A DNA stretch of 32,000 nucleotides. Origin: Candidatus Kuenenia stuttgartensis. Its GTDB lineage: Bacteria > Planctomycetota > Brocadiia > Brocadiales > Brocadiaceae. Made by a program: the position numbers and the translations under genes. The notes beneath the pieces are model-generated. The model had not been told where the DNA came from. It made no database searches and saw only the letters and a list, made by a program, of their open reading frames with translations. Of the stretch, positions 7,374-11,757 are shown piece by piece. The DNA lies in NCBI RefSeq assembly GCF_900232105.1, contig NZ_LT934425.1, forward strand, positions 2,850,001 to 2,882,000, in the 5' to 3' direction. Position 1 is the stretch's first letter. Each line of letters opens with the position of its first letter.

Positions 7374-7991
7374 ATGAAAAAGACGTTCCTTGTATATCGA
7401 TTAGCGCTTATACCATTTATTTTATTTACATTCTGTAGCGTTATTAACAGTAAGGAGGCACATGCCATGCAGTCAATAAAAGGAAAAAAGGTTGTAATAA
7501 TTATCGCAAAAAATAATTTCAGGGACGAAGAATTGCTGGAACCAAAGGCAATTCTGGAAAAAAACGGTGCGGCGGTAACAATCGCTTCTTCTTCATTAAA
7601 AGAATCAAAGGGGATGTTAGGGGCAAAAGTATCTCCGGATATCCTTTTTACGGATATCGCTGTTGGCGATTATGACGCAGTAATATTTGTGGGGGGGACA
7701 GGGTCAAGCGAATACTGGGACAACCCTACGGCGCATACGATTGCCAAAGAGGCAAACAAGGTAAACAAAATAGTGGGAGCAATTTGCATAGCGCCGGTGA
7801 CGCTTGCAAAAGCCGGATTGCTTAAAGGGAAAAAAGCCACAACATATTCCTCCACCGTAAATGATATCAAATCCGAAGGGGCAAATTACACCGGCGAGGG
7901 CGTTGAAAGAGACGGGAATATAATAACGGCAGACGGACCTGCATCGGCAAAGAAGTTCGGCGAGGCCATTGTAAAGGCGCTTCAGAAATAA
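7374..7991 (+). CDS. DJ-1/PfpI family protein with N-terminal Sec-type signal peptide
   Basis: The core KKVVIIIAKNNFRDEELLEPKAILEKNGAAVTIAS...DAVIFVGGTG...GAICIAPVTLAKAGLLKGKKATTY has the nucleophile-elbow Cys in AICIAP. The N-terminus MKKTFLVYRLALIPFILFTFCSVINSKEAHA looks like a signal peptide with an AHA cleavage site. Confidence 0.85.
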   Translation: MKKTFLVYRLALIPFILFTFCSVINSKEAHAMQSIKGKKVVIIIAKNNFRDEELLEPKAILEKNGAAVTIASSSLKESKGMLGAKVSPDILFTDIAVGDYDAVIFVGGTGSSEYWDNPTAHTIAKEANKVNKIVGAICIAPVTLAKAGLLKGKKATTYSSTVNDIKSEGANYTGEGVERDGNIITADGPASAKKFGEAIVKALQK

Positions 7992-8327: not shown

Positions 8328-8594
8328 AACGGCAACTTTTAAAAAATCACAATCTGTGAACCCGTAATGTATAATGTAGAGACCCATTGAAGAAGGCTTT
8401 GGAAAAGGATTATTTGTAGTAATTTCAGCGGAAGCAACGAAATGAAAATATGTATGTGAAGGGCAGGGAGGAATATGTGGCCTTTTGTTTCCTTTAACAA
8501 ATTAGTTGATTATATTAGCCAAAAGTCTTAAATTGTCGCAGAATATAAGGGATGCAAAACAGATAATGGCTTTTTCAGATAAGGAGAAACGAAT

Positions 8595-8837
8595 ATGAAT
8601 CCGCTTTTACAACGTATTACCATCGATCAGGGTGTCTGCTTTGGCAAACCCTGCATTCGTGGCACTCGCATCTGGGTATCACTGATTCTTGATTTTCTGT
8701 CCAATGGGATGAGTATTGAGGAGATTCTTGCAGAATATCCTCAACTGACGGAGGAAGATGTTCGGGCTGCTCTTGCCTATGGAGCTGAGATGGCGCGAGA
8801 ACGATATGTTGAAATACCAACCGGGACGACAGGATGA
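8595..8837 (+). CDS. DUF433-family antitoxin-like protein
   Basis: IDQGVCFGKPCIRGTRIWVSLILDFLSNGMSIEEILAEYPQLTEEDVRAALAYG is the classic DUF433 pattern. It has a 4-nt ATGA overlap with the next gene. Confidence 0.8.
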   Translation: MNPLLQRITIDQGVCFGKPCIRGTRIWVSLILDFLSNGMSIEEILAEYPQLTEEDVRAALAYGAEMARERYVEIPTGTTG

Positions 8838-9205
8838 AGTTTAAATTAGATGAGAACTTTGGAACACGAACACAGGAAATTTTTCGTGCAGCGGGACATG
8901 ACATTCAAACAGTCCGTAGTCAGGAACTCCAGGGGTGTTTGGATCGAAATCTCTATGAGGTATGCTGTAAGGAACAACGTTGTCTGATAACGCTGGACTT
9001 GGATTTTGCGGATGTAATCAGCTTTCCACCATGTTCAGCAAGTGGCATAGTTGTCATTCGTATTCCCCGGAATCCAGGTTTTGCTTTGCTGGAACAACTG
9101 GTCCTGCAATTTCTACAATTACTCACTCAAATGCCCGTAGAGAAGAAGCTTTGGATTGTCGAGGTCGGCCGAATTCGGATTCATCAGTCAGAAGCAGGAA
9201 AATGA
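8834..9205 (+). CDS. DUF5615-family PIN-like (Mut7-C-like) putative toxin
   Basis: MKFKLDENFGTRTQEIFRAAGHDIQTV...CLITLDLDFAD is the usual partner pattern found next to DUF433 genes. Confidence 0.75.
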   Translation: MKFKLDENFGTRTQEIFRAAGHDIQTVRSQELQGCLDRNLYEVCCKEQRCLITLDLDFADVISFPPCSASGIVVIRIPRNPGFALLEQLVLQFLQLLTQMPVEKKLWIVEVGRIRIHQSEAGK

Positions 9206-9224
9206 CTGTGATAATCAAATAAAG

Positions 9225-9258
9225 GCGGGGCGGGGGTTTTAACATTTGCCCGCCCCGC
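9225..9258. terminator. GC-rich hairpin between convergent operons (candidate bidirectional terminator)
   Basis: GCGGGGCGGG at 9225-9234 pairs with CCCGCCCCGC at 9249-9258 across a 14-nt loop. On the reverse strand it is followed by a T-rich run (CCTTTATTTGATTAT). Confidence 0.5.
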
Positions 9259-9271
9259 GTTGGAGCTTGAG

Positions 9272-9378
9272 CTTAGGCGCTGTAAATAAATTAACGTCTC
9301 ACTTTGAAGCCTTGATTGCATGTTTCCAGAGCATGAAATTGATCTACTTGATACCTTTATTTATTTACAGTGCCTTAC
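9272..9378 (-). mobile_element. 99-bp MITE, copy A (107 bp identical to copy B, inverted)
   Basis: The element core is 9276-9374, flanked by TTA at 9273-9275 and 9375-9377. Terminal inverted repeats are GGCGCTGTAAATAAATTAACG and the reverse complement of GGCACTGTAAATAAATAAAGG. The reverse complement of 9272-9378 is identical at every base to 13694-13800. Confidence 0.8.
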
Positions 9379-9578
9379 TTGCCTTTAAGTTCCTGGATGC
9401 GTTCTGCTGCTCCTGCGAGCTCTTTCTTCAGTTGGTCACTGTACTCTTCCAACATTTCCTGTTCCTCTTTTGTGGATATGAAACGTCGGAAGAAAGGACG
9501 ACATCCACACCCGCAGCAGCCACAGCTACATCCCAAAACCCCCGTCATTCTTTGGCTTCCTCCTGGTTTGCAACACAT
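9375..9578 (-). CDS. Small Cys-rich protein with C-terminal coiled coil (DUF5320-like tail, metallothionein-like head)
   Basis: MCCKPGGSQRMTGVLGCSCGCCGCGCRPFFRRFISTKEEQEMLEEYSDQLKKELAGAAERIQELKGK has 8 Cys in 67 aa. GGAGGT lies 8-9 nt before the ATG at 9578. An alternative start at Met11 also has AGGAGG upstream. The gene is the second in an operon behind an ArsR gene. Confidence 0.6.
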   Translation of the reverse strand: MCCKPGGSQRMTGVLGCSCGCCGCGCRPFFRRFISTKEEQEMLEEYSDQLKKELAGAAERIQELKGK

Positions 9579-9647
9579 TTTTCATCACCTCCTTCCTATA
9601 AAATTCGATATTGTGCTGACCACGTCAGCAAACATATAAAGATAGTA

Positions 9648-9680
9648 GTTAGGTATTTAAGCATATACTTAATTATAAAA
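9648..9680 (-). promoter_or_regulatory. Operator-like box upstream of the Cys-rich gene
   Basis: GTTAGGTATTTAAGCATATACTTAATTATAAAA has arms TTAGGT (9649-9654) and ACTTAA (9667-9672) separated by 12 nt. The same architecture recurs at 10128-10160. Confidence 0.4.
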
Positions 9681-9694
9681 TTAAAAAAATTTAC

Positions 9695-10108
9695 CTACTT
9701 CTTTGGGGTTGCTATTTCTTTAATCCTTTCATGGACAGTTCTGATTTCATTTTGCAATTCCTTCTCATATTTCCTGAGTAATTCTAAACTTGCTCCACTC
9801 AGTTCTTTCTCTTTGAATTTGCCGGTTTCTGAGCATCCACATGTACAAACTTCGTTTAAAATCTGTCGGCAATTTTCTAACGCCTCTTCATCTATGGAAT
9901 ACGGTATCCAGTATCCCTTTCTTTCACTCCTGACAAGACCTGACTGCTTCAATATTTTTAGATGTTGTGATACCGCGGCTGGTGTTATGCCAACCAGTTC
10001 TGCAATATTTTTGACGCCAAGCGGCCCCTTGGACTTCAGGAGATCAATTATTCTAACCCGTGTTTCCACGGCTAATACCTTAAAAATTTCGGAAGGTACT
10101 AACTTCAT
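9695..10108 (-). CDS. ArsR/SmtB-family transcriptional regulator with C-terminal CxCGC plus coiled-coil extension
   Basis: The winged HTH is FKVLAVETRVRIIDLLKSKGPLGVKNIAELVGITPAAVSQHLKILKQSGLVRSERKG. The extra tail is VCTCGCSETGKFKEKELSGASLELLRKYEKELQNEIRTVHERIKEI. RBS AGGAGC precedes the ATG. Confidence 0.85.
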   Translation of the reverse strand: MKLVPSEIFKVLAVETRVRIIDLLKSKGPLGVKNIAELVGITPAAVSQHLKILKQSGLVRSERKGYWIPYSIDEEALENCRQILNEVCTCGCSETGKFKEKELSGASLELLRKYEKELQNEIRTVHERIKEIATPKK

Positions 10109-10127
10109 TTCTTTATGCTCCTATTCT

Positions 10128-10160
10128 GTTAAGTATTTTAGTAATAACTTAATTAAAATA
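10128..10160 (-). promoter_or_regulatory. Operator-like box upstream of the ArsR gene
   Basis: GTTAAGTATTTTAGTAATAACTTAATTAAAATA has arms TTAAGT (10129-10134) and ACTTAA (10147-10152) separated by 12 nt. Confidence 0.4.
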
Positions 10161-10390
10161 TTACAAAAGAGCGTGTTTGTCAAGCGCTTTTTTTACAGCA
10201 GCAATATTTTTATTTTGGATGCAGATACACGCAGATTATCAGGATTACATACAAAATTGCCAGTGTGTGTCTGAGAAAATCAGCGTCCTCTTTTGATGGA
10301 AATAAGTGCCTTTGAAGAAGGTTTCGGGAAGGGATTGTTTGTCATAATCGTTGCGAAGGTAATGAAATGAAATTCCTGTACGAATAAAAT

Positions 10391-10744
10391 TTATTTTCTC
10401 GTGGCTGTTTTTGTCTGTCTTCTTTCACTCTCCTTTCGAACTTCTTCGCATGAACGTCGTACAACAGGGTAATTTCCGGAAATAAACATAAATAGCGAAT
10501 CTGCCATTTTGGGGCGTGTGATGTAATAACAACGAAGCGCTCCATCCTCATAAAAATCAATTATCTTAAGCCTTCGCAATACCGAAAGATGTTGAGAGAG
10601 GTTGGACTGTTCAATGTCCAATAAATCCTGGATATCCGTTACACACTTAGCCCCTTCAGCAATCTCTTCCAATATCAACAATCTGGTTGGATGTCCCAGG
10701 ATCTTTAAAATTTCCGCTTTGTCTCTTATATCTAATTTATTCAT
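10391..10744 (-). CDS. ArsR-family transcriptional regulator (paralog 1 of a two-Cys subtype)
   Basis: ILKILGHPTRLLILEEIAEGAKCVTDIQDLLDIEQSNLSQHLSVLRRLKIIDFYEDGALRCYYITRPK. It is closely related to the product of 15186-15536. Confidence 0.85.
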   Translation of the reverse strand: MNKLDIRDKAEILKILGHPTRLLILEEIAEGAKCVTDIQDLLDIEQSNLSQHLSVLRRLKIIDFYEDGALRCYYITRPKMADSLFMFISGNYPVVRRSCEEVRKESERRQTKTATRK

Positions 10745-10938: not shown

Positions 10939-11757
10939 ATGAGTGAAACCATTTCCGATATTGGCGTATTTAAATCCCGGCTCCAGGCGACCTGGGCAGC
11001 AGGAAATTTCGGAGAGATTGCAAAATCGTATGAAGATGGCGCAGCAGAATTTGTTGATAGACTGAAGGTCACTCCCGGCCTTAGAGTACTTGATGTTGCA
11101 TGCGGTACCGGTAATCTTACTTTGCCATGTGCGCGGGCCGGCGCATGTGTTACCGGAGTAGACATAGTTCCTAATCTCCTGGAACAAGGCAGAGATCGTG
11201 CGAAAACAGAGGGACTCCTGATCAAGCTTGATGAAGGCGATGTTGAAAACCTTCCCTATCCCGACCACACCTTTGATTTGGTGGTTACGATGTTTGGGGC
11301 AATGTTTGCCCCACACCCGGAAAAGACTGCGGCAGAGCTTGTCCGCGTATGCCGCCCTGGCGGACGTATCGCTATGGCCAACTGGGTGTCTTCCGGATTT
11401 ATTGGACAGGTATTCAAGACGACCACCAGTCGTGTTCCTCCACCGCCGGGAGTGCCATCTCCACTTCTTTGGGGAGACGAAGCCACGGTGCGTGAACGCC
11501 TGCAGAAAGGCACATCAGCATTAGAGTTTGCTCGATGCATTATATCCTTTAAGTTCCCGTTTGCTCCTGCAGAAGTGGTCGAGTTTTGGAGGCAGTTTTA
11601 TGGTCCGACACAGCGAGCGTTCGCTGCACTTGATGCCGATGGACAAGCCGCATTTCGCAAAGATCTCGAAGGGCTTTGGACCGCCCACAACAAAGGAAAT
11701 AGAGGCTCCACTCTCGTTGAGTCGGAATACCTGGTGGTGGTGGCGCTCCGGACATGA
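10939..11757 (+). CDS. Class I SAM-dependent methyltransferase (Methyltransf_11-like)
   Basis: VLDVACGTGNLTLPCARAGACVTGVDIVPNLLEQGR (motif I), DEGDVENLPYPDHTFDLVV and CRPGGRIAMANW. It is noticeably GC-richer than its neighbours; a 68-nt sample I counted was 41 G+C. Confidence 0.85.
   Translation: MSETISDIGVFKSRLQATWAAGNFGEIAKSYEDGAAEFVDRLKVTPGLRVLDVACGTGNLTLPCARAGACVTGVDIVPNLLEQGRDRAKTEGLLIKLDEGDVENLPYPDHTFDLVVTMFGAMFAPHPEKTAAELVRVCRPGGRIAMANWVSSGFIGQVFKTTTSRVPPPPGVPSPLLWGDEATVRERLQKGTSALEFARCIISFKFPFAPAEVVEFWRQFYGPTQRAFAALDADGQAAFRKDLEGLWTAHNKGNRGSTLVESEYLVVVALRT

Follow-up and report, generated by a model that had tools for sequence, protein, structure and literature searches.

A two-gene cassette in Candidatus Kuenenia stuttgartensis pairs a tailed ArsR-family regulator with a small cysteine-rich protein carrying a related cysteine-plus-helix module

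The stretch analyzed here (the window) covers 32,000 nucleotides of the Candidatus Kuenenia stuttgartensis genome (contig NZ_LT934425.1, positions 2,850,001 to 2,882,000). Names of database matches agree in assigning it to an anammox planctomycete of the Candidatus Kuenenia / Brocadiaceae group. It carries two neighboring minus-strand genes, one encoding a 137-residue ArsR/SmtB-family regulator and the next, downstream, encoding a 67-residue cysteine-rich protein, termed the mini-protein. Both open reading frames (ORFs) have the coordinates and strand given by an earlier model reading of the same DNA, made without database searches (the sequence-only reading); features are collected in Table 1. 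The 50-residue tail of the regulator and the mini-protein have a common layout of a CxCGC motif, a linker, and a helix, and the two genes form a cassette that recurs in several bacterial phyla with interchangeable small partners.

The regulator belongs to the ArsR/SmtB family by its winged helix-turn-helix of the HTH_5/ArsR type: Pfam HTH_5 matches residues 15-61 (E 1.8e-13, 50.6 bits against a cut-off of 22), and the NCBIfam model HTH_metalloreg (NF033788) scores 85.7 bits against a cut-off of 55. Its best matches among solved structures are CadC-like proteins, NmtR, CzrA, and SmtB. Since solved ArsR structures cover only residues 6-89, the remaining ~50 residues constitute an extension, as the sequence-only reading had proposed. 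The AlphaFold2 model (mean predicted local distance difference test score, pLDDT, 74) contains the usual winged helix, an α5 helix at residues 74-86, a low-confidence loop (87-99) holding C88-x-C90-G-C92, and a further helix at residues 108-133. A fold search with this model returned generic winged-helix proteins only, with weak scores. The regulator has four cysteines, C80, C88, C90, and C92; among 21 diverse homologues, C88, C90, and G91 are invariant and C80 and C92 are at least 90% conserved. The classical ArsR sites (α3/α3N ELCVCDL and α5 Asp/His/Glu) are absent, the α3 region reading PLGVKNIAELVG, without cysteine, and α5 reading EEALENCRQILNEV, without the His/Asp/Glu pattern. These classical sites define canonical metal-sensing subgroups, not the whole family.

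The mini-protein, which includes the peptide FISTKEEQEMLEEYSDQLK, has eight cysteines in its 67 residues (C2, 3, 17, 19, 21, 22, 24, and 26), the number counted before. Its head is predicted to be disordered, with an AlphaFold2 pLDDT that averages less than 52 across residues 1-30 and stays under 50 at residues 6-17, and is followed by a single long helix. Across the family the CxCGC core is kept, and the extra CGCGC varies. We found 57 homologues of the mini-protein, and a library of 1.84 billion proteins contains 859 cluster representatives of the family at E<=1e-3, nearly all stand-alone proteins of 45-85 residues. The DUF5320 resemblance noted earlier for the tail is seen in part of the family, with a match at E<=1 in 25/33 members (best 1.7e-6), chiefly over the C-terminal helix; the window protein itself scores 11.1 bits (E 0.98) against Pfam PF17253, below the gathering cut-off of 27. 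One relative, P0150, is named a DUF5320 domain protein by NCBI. On these matches the family is probably a cysteine-rich divergent branch of DUF5320, from which the mini-protein differs in that its head is a cysteine cluster; we know of no function for DUF5320.

When the two window proteins are compared by pairwise BLASTP, 9/24 positions are identical (E 4e-4, a single comparison), next to 10/25 counted by hand in the sequence-only reading; taken alone, the BLASTP match is suggestive only. Profile comparison by hhalign of 37 tails with 37 mini-proteins, taken as pairs from other genomes, gives an alignment of 49 columns that starts at VCxCGC and runs to the end of the helix, with a probability of 97.8%, an E value of 7.6e-13, and a score of 59.7, against 15.0 for the reversed mini-protein alignment and 19.5 for the best of 60 column shuffles. 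Hidden Markov models (HMMs) of the tail family and of the mini-protein family match only these two families among 2591 locus ORFs. The hydrophobic spacing of the two helices is identical, a 4-4 stutter included, and 4/7 regulator tails weakly match the C-terminal helix of DUF5320 (E 0.004-0.055). The cysteine-plus-helix module of tail and mini-protein is, by these profile comparisons, homologous and not a chance coiled-coil likeness. The shared module claimed by the sequence-only reading, which had been offered subject to a proper alignment statistic, is thereby confirmed. No homologue of either the regulator tail or the mini-protein was found among solved structures. Mean pairwise identity is 68.5% across phyla for the mini-protein helix versus 45.7% for the tail helix: almost all positions are conserved in the former, and not much besides the hydrophobic core in the latter. 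An effector-type module seems to have been copied into the sensor.

The 32 kb contain exactly two copies of the box TAATTAAGT-N12-ACYTAA, where none is expected by chance; one precedes each gene, as had been read from the sequence. In the 37 loci with a complete pair (see below), the conserved operator core is a palindrome, TTAAG-N6-CTTAA (7-2-7 type). Many loci add a third CTTAA half-site 3 bp beyond it, and this half-site accounts for the longer N12 box of the sequence-only reading. In 30/37 loci the 120 bp ahead of the regulator contain a core site (>=9/10 bases), and in 22/37 there is one upstream of the mini-gene, with only 10 such sites elsewhere in 246 kb. In the window, a 41-nt stretch including the flank of operator 2 is 78% identical to the operator 1 region. 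The arrangement is of the ArsR type, with a putative palindromic operator right after the -10 element of the regulator promoter and again before the mini-gene, and most related loci repeat TTGACA-17-TAgTAT directly ahead of the operator. In locus L033, where an extra gene separates the pair, the box can come after the regulator stop codon.

The leader and intergenic region has no Rfam match at E<=1. At the place of the perfect 7-bp leader hairpin, which the window has in common with locus L001, six relatives (L008, L058, L063, L064, L067, and L072) hold a different hairpin with arms CCUCU...AGAGG that could mimic or mask the ribosome-binding site. Downstream, the GC-rich hairpin escaped the promoter/terminator scan because its loop is 12 nt long; relatives have equivalent GC hairpins 3' of the partner gene. 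A 27-nt inverted repeat (9275-9301 and 9349-9375, 85% complementary, 47 nt apart) lies right after the mini-gene stop and precedes this terminator-like hairpin.

A scan with the mini-protein profile, limited to one genome per species, yielded 56 loci. A complete tailed ArsR gene lies upstream on the same strand in 37 of them, all bacterial, with a gap below 250 bp in 28, and the pair is present in all 37 bacterial mini-gene genomes having a complete upstream regulator gene. The regulator of a 38th locus (L024) is cut by the contig end, loci L037 and L041 are cut just upstream of the mini-gene, and the other remaining loci are archaeal, without a tailed regulator. Pair-bearing phyla include Planctomycetota, Thermodesulfobacteriota, Zixibacteria, Atribacterota, and Nitrospinota, together with Elusimicrobia, Gemmatimonadota, WOR-3, and Desantisbacteria. 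Most hosts are anaerobes (anammox bacteria, sulfate reducers, Zixibacteria, Atribacterota), and the two-gene cassette is widespread in anaerobic microbes. Conservation of the pairing in other genomes, which the sequence-only reading had named as decisive for its proposal, is thus found.

The archaeal DUF5320-like mini-genes are divergent from genes for short PadR- or HxlR-type regulators with N-terminal cysteines and no tail. Their hosts include Nitrososphaera, Micrarchaeota, Bathyarchaeia, and Methanohalophilus, among others; PadR-like neighbors occur in L046-L056, L034, L042, and L053, and HxlR-like neighbors in L017, L018, L031, and L048. One archaeal PadR-like ORF looked similar by eye. 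A shared helix in these regulators was rejected, since hhalign against the mini-protein family gave probabilities of 0.1% and 2.0% and there was no HMM match.

The mini-gene is a genuine coding gene under purifying selection, with a median ratio of nonsynonymous to synonymous substitution rates (dN/dS) of 0.18 (window versus closest relative, 0.019/0.106), codon-position variability of 0.21/0.165/0.41, and a ribosome-binding site, GGAGGTGAT followed by 5-7 nt and ATG, that is kept across phyla. Translation of the small ORF, a further point on which the sequence-only reading had hung its case, is supported by this selection. That the ORF is instead non-functional as a protein, whether as a leader or attenuator peptide, a decaying duplicate of the regulator 3' end, or the precursor of a modified-peptide natural product, is scarcely credible. 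The absence of the exact window sequence from the protein collection searched and a frameshifted variant, P0151, point in that direction; the low dN/dS, a variability at third codon positions roughly double that at the first two, the 859 largely stand-alone cluster representatives, and the conserved ribosome-binding site point against it. The occurrence of the family in archaea lacking the regulator is at odds with a decaying tail copy, and no modifying enzymes recur nearby. P0151 itself, from a Candidatus Kuenenia stuttgartiensis genome bin, is a 70-residue variant with its N-terminal 19 residues in another frame and an altered C terminus, which suggests indels in the repetitive TGY-GGN DNA of the cysteine cluster or assembly errors.

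Seen from the regulator, the partner is not constant. Scanning metagenomes with a diverse ArsR alignment yielded 80 loci of 67-94% identity, 79 of which carry the tail. Only 11/79 tailed regulators are followed by a DUF5320-like mini-gene (type 1), and 59/79 by a second kind of gene (type 2), a ratio that may differ elsewhere as the set comprises the 80 best matches to the window regulator. Together, a small CxCGC peptide follows 70/79 tailed ArsR genes, and three more loci carry variant motifs, which brings the type 2 loci to 62. Type 2 genes were called by a rule of our own, combining a ribosome-binding site, a start codon, and a CxCxC motif, and the family was drawn from loci L058-L136. The peptides measure 24-38 residues and comprise MAEKKNSCGCGCIPLK and a lysine-rich tail, with no helix; the consensus is M-A-E-K-K-N-S-CGCGC-I-P-L-K followed by that tail. 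In front of their genes stand the operator and ribosome-binding site also seen with type 1, and the genes are under coding selection (codon-position variability 0.136/0.131/0.36, dN/dS 0.18). Type 2 peptides have no Pfam match, metallothionein families included, and are nearly absent from the protein collection searched. One of the three variants, 54 residues long and downstream of the ArsR gene in L102, contains three tandem CGCGCIPLK-like units, and a database search with it gave only two unnamed relatives; its units resemble the repeat expansion of a metal-binding peptide, as expected for a ligand-binding repeat.

Table 1. Features of the regulator/mini-protein cassette in the window, with one example of a type 2 partner from a related locus
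Feature	Position	Strand	Basis or remark
Sigma-70-like regulator promoter, TTGACA-17-TATTTT	10155..10183	(-)	10/12 matches
Operator 1, TAATTAAGT-N12-ACTTAA, abutting the -10 element (putative)	10129..10155	(-)	Motif search
ArsR/SmtB-family regulator, 137 aa	9695..10108	(-)	ORF; winged helix-turn-helix plus C-terminal sensor/coiled-coil tail
Winged helix-turn-helix DNA-binding core, residues 15-61	9926..10066	(-)	Pfam HTH_5; AlphaFold2 pLDDT 82-94 over residues 11-70
Candidate sensory cysteine cluster, C80 (ALENC), then C88-x-C90-G-C92 (VCTCGC)	9833..9871	(-)	End of helix α5
Regulator tail helix, residues 108-132, hydrophobic spacing 3,3,4,4,3,4,3	9713..9787	(-)	Homologous to mini-protein helix (profile comparison)
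Operator 2, TAATTAAGT-N12-ACCTAA, perfect core TTAAGTATATGCTTAA, upstream of mini-gene (putative)	9649..9675	(-)	Motif search
Perfect 7-bp hairpin TGCTGAC-GTG-GTCAGCA in mini-gene leader	9614..9630	(-)	Sequence reading; common to L001
Strong ribosome-binding site GGAGGTGAT, 5 nt ahead of mini-gene ATG	9584..9592	(-)	Sequence reading
Mini-protein, 67 aa, cysteine-rich, probable divergent DUF5320 relative (type 1 partner)	9375..9578	(-)	ORF
Cysteine cluster CSCGCCGCGC (C17-C26) in disordered head	9501..9530	(-)	AlphaFold2 and sequence
Single long mini-protein helix, residues 36-66, very highly conserved	9381..9473	(-)	AlphaFold2 pLDDT ~95
GC-rich hairpin GCGGGGCGGG...CCCCGCCCCGC, then T-run	9216..9258	(-)	Sequence reading; likely terminator of the two-gene unit
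Type 2 partner gene, example in L058	3043-3144		Just 3' of ArsR stop

The two partner types are intermixed among closely related regulators: the window regulator is 94% identical to a neighbor with a type 1 partner and 93% identical to one with a type 2 partner. In locus L063 both flanks are syntenic with those of the window, and only the mini-gene segment is replaced. Because partners are swapped in this way and type 2 peptides have no helix, the element constant between regulator and target is the CxCGC motif and not the coiled coil, which is optional in the target.

This pattern bears directly on the mechanism first suggested for the pair, in which the mini-protein helix would form a hetero-coiled coil with the tail helix, titrating the repressor off DNA or forming a joint cysteine site in the manner of SrnR/SrnQ. 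Homology of the two helices with the same unusual 4-4 stutter, adjacency and co-regulation of the genes, and the precedent of an ArsR regulator that needs a metal-binding partner (SrnR/SrnQ, PMC11672702) all speak for such a switch. As a general mechanism it is nevertheless disfavored by the 59/79 same-tail regulators with a helix-less partner, by regulators 93% identical to that of the window that carry either partner type, and by L063, with its clean swap of the mini-gene only. Nor do the unequal identities of the two helices (68.5% and 45.7%) correspond to what mutual co-adaptation predicts, and the archaeal mini-proteins adjoin PadR/HxlR regulators that have no tail. We therefore judge the coiled-coil switch improbable, with hetero-oligomerization possible as an extra layer in the helix-bearing (type 1) subset.

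The account we prefer, on balance and without strong assurance, is that the cassette is a self-contained two-gene stress system in which an autoregulated ArsR-type sensor controls a metallothionein-like cysteine peptide in response to a soft-metal-like ligand. It builds on observed properties, namely domain anatomy, tail-mini homology, operator and pair conservation, coding selection, and partner interchangeability; from these we infer repression, ligand identity, oligomeric states, and sequestration. The regulator dimer would bind TTAAG-N6-CTTAA right after the -10 element of its own promoter and a second operator copy ahead of the mini-gene, repressing both genes. Its sensory site would be formed by C80, C88, C90, and C92 at the junction of the dimerization helix α5 and the added C-terminal helix. 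In the ArsR family α5 is the dimerization helix, so the added helix probably extends the homodimer, and it would juxtapose the two cysteine clusters. A thiophilic ligand at the cluster would change DNA affinity and release the repressor, and derepression would supply the metallothionein-like mini-protein, whose CxCGC chemistry, the same as the sensor's, would sequester the ligand. In this window, the helix of the mini-protein may permit oligomerization.

Among possible ligands a soft metal or metalloid is the most likely, with a weak preference for Cu(I); a thiol-reactive oxidant or sulfur species is less likely. Richness in CxC is typical of peptides that bind Cu(I), and a CopD/DUF4149-like membrane protein is encoded 3' of the cassette in 16/116 loci, including close relatives of the window; copper is accordingly a weak first guess. 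The metallothionein-like head of the sequence-only reading survives in its cysteine-rich traits, since the mini-protein is small and rich in cysteine, has CxC motifs, and lies behind an ArsR operator; it matches no known metallothionein family, and the resemblance is a functional one only.

Several observations weigh against this soft-metal account. There is no metallothionein family among the Pfam and NCBIfam matches of the mini-protein, and no ligand can be read from the sequence. Solvent-exposed residues of the mini-protein helix are extremely conserved, which suggests a defined oligomer or higher-order assembly, or a specific conserved partner, beyond the needs of simple sequestration. The promoter scan returned no separate mini-gene promoter, and reading by eye found a -10-like TATAAT without an acceptable -35; lacking a convincing -35, the mini-gene may be read through from the regulator promoter, in which case operator 2 may be a second binding site. 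Neighborhoods are heterogeneous, with no conserved third gene that names the ligand: only acyl-CoA-dehydrogenase-like and CopD-like genes recur. The commonest third gene, for an acyl-CoA-dehydrogenase-like flavoprotein, follows or is inserted in the cassette in 23/116 loci and has no obvious metal link, while rhodanese, DsrE, and DsbD-like neighbors in a few loci point to sulfur or redox chemistry. Both structure models are AlphaFold2 monomers of moderate confidence.

Some of these same neighbors would suit a thiol redox, electrophile, or sulfane-sulfur switch, in which the cluster is oxidized, alkylated, or persulfidated and the mini-proteins act as sacrificial thiol buffers or sulfur carriers; we regard this as rather unlikely. 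ArsR regulators of the CyeR and BigR/SqrR type are precedents for thiol switches, and the HxlR family, whose members adjoin archaeal relatives of the mini-protein, includes thiol-based sensors. The mostly anaerobic hosts, the frequency of the flavoprotein as third gene, and the rhodanese fusions and DsrE and DsbD-like genes near some loci fit such a switch as well. It is countered by the CxCxC triple, which is more typical of metal-thiolate sites than of disulfide switches, by the tandem-repeat variant with its resemblance to metallothionein expansion, by the CopD-like neighbors in 16/116 loci, and by sulfur-related neighbors that are few and inconsistent.

An Fe-S sensor, with the regulator's four cysteines, and C2 plus CxCGC of the mini-protein, ligating a cluster that reports oxygen, nitric oxide, or iron, is very unlikely. 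Each protein does have four conserved cysteines and the hosts are anaerobic, but Fe-S clusters are not usually ligated through a CxCxC spacing, the cysteines of type 2 peptides number only three, and no Fe-S assembly genes were found in the examined neighborhoods.

A bolder form of the soft-metal account, offered tentatively and with some doubt, holds that ArsR-controlled CxCGC micro-proteins (24-70 aa) form a widespread, mostly unannotated class of inducible ligand buffers and that the sensor arose as an ArsR winged helix with a fused copy of the effector module (DUF5320-like, cysteine-plus-helix), so that sensor and buffer would have their ligand chemistry in common and their affinities would be matched by descent. 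Under this formulation the helix-bearing subset, the window included, may exchange ligand or co-assemble with the sensor.

Control of metallothioneins by ArsR-family repressors has precedents such as AzuR/NmtA (PMC8790569). As in SmtB/SmtA, BxmR/BmtA, and AzuR/NmtA, an ArsR repressor here adjoins, and apparently controls, a small cysteine-rich protein, and as in the SmtB/SmtA type, a palindromic operator lies at the promoter and the regulator is likely autoregulated; SmtB/SmtA, invoked by the sequence-only reading, was thus the right kind of precedent. The cassette departs from that type in three respects. The window regulator lacks the α3N (CVC) and α5 His/Asp/Glu sites and has a C-terminal Cys4 cluster with an added helix; its target, instead of a BmtA/SmtA metallothionein, is either DUF5320-like or a CGCGC peptide of 24-38 residues; and the regulator's putative sensory tail is homologous to the target. 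In SrnR/SrnQ of Streptomyces griseus, an ArsR-family DNA binder likewise works with an adjacently encoded small partner (PMC11672702), and the SrnR winged-helix domain matches the window regulator at E 4.8e-6. SrnR, however, depends on SrnQ, which binds nickel, whereas the window regulator has its own cysteine cluster, and the interchangeable partner type argues against an obligate complex.

Parallels outside this group are partial. CopY is a winged-helix copper repressor of the BlaI/MecI family with a C-terminal CxCx4CxC cluster at the dimer interface, and CopZ is a ferredoxin-fold chaperone unrelated to it in sequence. This pair resembles the cassette in the C-terminal cysteine cluster of the repressor and in a small cysteine-containing copper binder from the same operon, but CopY is not an ArsR protein and the cassette has no copper ATPase. 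Acidithiobacillus ferrooxidans ArsR and CmtR also have their sensory thiolates C-terminal and not in α3 (PMC11672702), on tails that, unlike the present one, are short and flexible, lack a coiled coil, and share no homology with a co-encoded target. Pyrococcus heat-shock regulator Phr (PDB 2p4w) and PH1932 (1uly), found among the matches by sequence and by fold, have a longer C-terminal region joined to an ArsR-like winged helix; their sequence match is confined to the N-terminal domain, the fold match is weak (E 2.4e-3, template-modeling score TM 0.35), and they have neither a cysteine cluster nor a co-encoded homologous mini-protein.

An ArsR repressor with a small cysteine-rich protein is thus an already known kind of system, and the novelty lies in the target-homologous sensory tail, in the interchangeability of the micro-peptide partners, and in how widely the cassette occurs in anaerobes. 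The sequence-only reading knew of no described regulator with a copy of its target's own module, and our literature search found no description of the tailed regulator subfamily, of DUF5320 function, or of type 2 peptides; the literature searched on ArsR with coiled-coil or small cysteine-rich proteins, and on ArsR in Kuenenia, yielded no account of this system, and DUF5320 received incidental mentions only. ArsR/SmtB proteins are a main model for bacterial sensing of metals and reactive sulfur, and a Cys4-plus-helix element homologous to the target raises the question of how sensor set-point relates to buffer capacity. The partner peptides, especially those of 24-38 residues, lie beside nearly every examined regulator of the subfamily and represent functional micro-proteins that annotation overlooks. 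Hosts such as anammox bacteria, sulfate reducers, Zixibacteria, Atribacterota, and Nitrospinota play important parts in treating wastewater and in the chemistry of sediments, settings in which stress from metals and sulfide counts. If the bolder form of the account is true, DUF5320 would gain its first functional context and the ArsR family a new class of sensory site.

In the surrounding window, a second, ordinary ArsR gene (117 aa, 10391-10744, minus strand) with a CVTD motif in the α3 region is the immediate upstream neighbor of the cassette on its strand; an S-adenosylmethionine (SAM)-dependent methyltransferase gene (10939-11757, plus strand) diverges from it, and the same 117-residue ArsR gene precedes the cassette in L001 and L063. 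An overlapping DUF433/DUF5615 (PIN-like) gene pair (8595-8837 and 8834-9205, plus strand), a probable toxin-antitoxin module, is convergent with the mini-gene and absent from that place in L063. Two 64-nt direct repeats (8384-8447 and 10309-10372, plus strand; 75% identical) bracket this pair, the mini-gene, and the regulator, in what looks like a rearrangement or insertion scar. They encode a methyltransferase-like C-terminal end (..PIEEGFGKGLFVV..), an ending also found on a 222-residue methyltransferase beside the cassette in L058, L061, and L062. A 342-residue antisense ORF (9246-10274, plus strand) lies opposite both cassette genes and was rejected as a gene, being an artefact of the Lys/Glu-rich coding strand, with similar antisense ORFs in 23 related loci. 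Positions 7374-7991 (plus strand) encode a DJ-1/PfpI-family protein (E 2.7e-42) whose N terminus bears a hydrophobic, signal-like segment.

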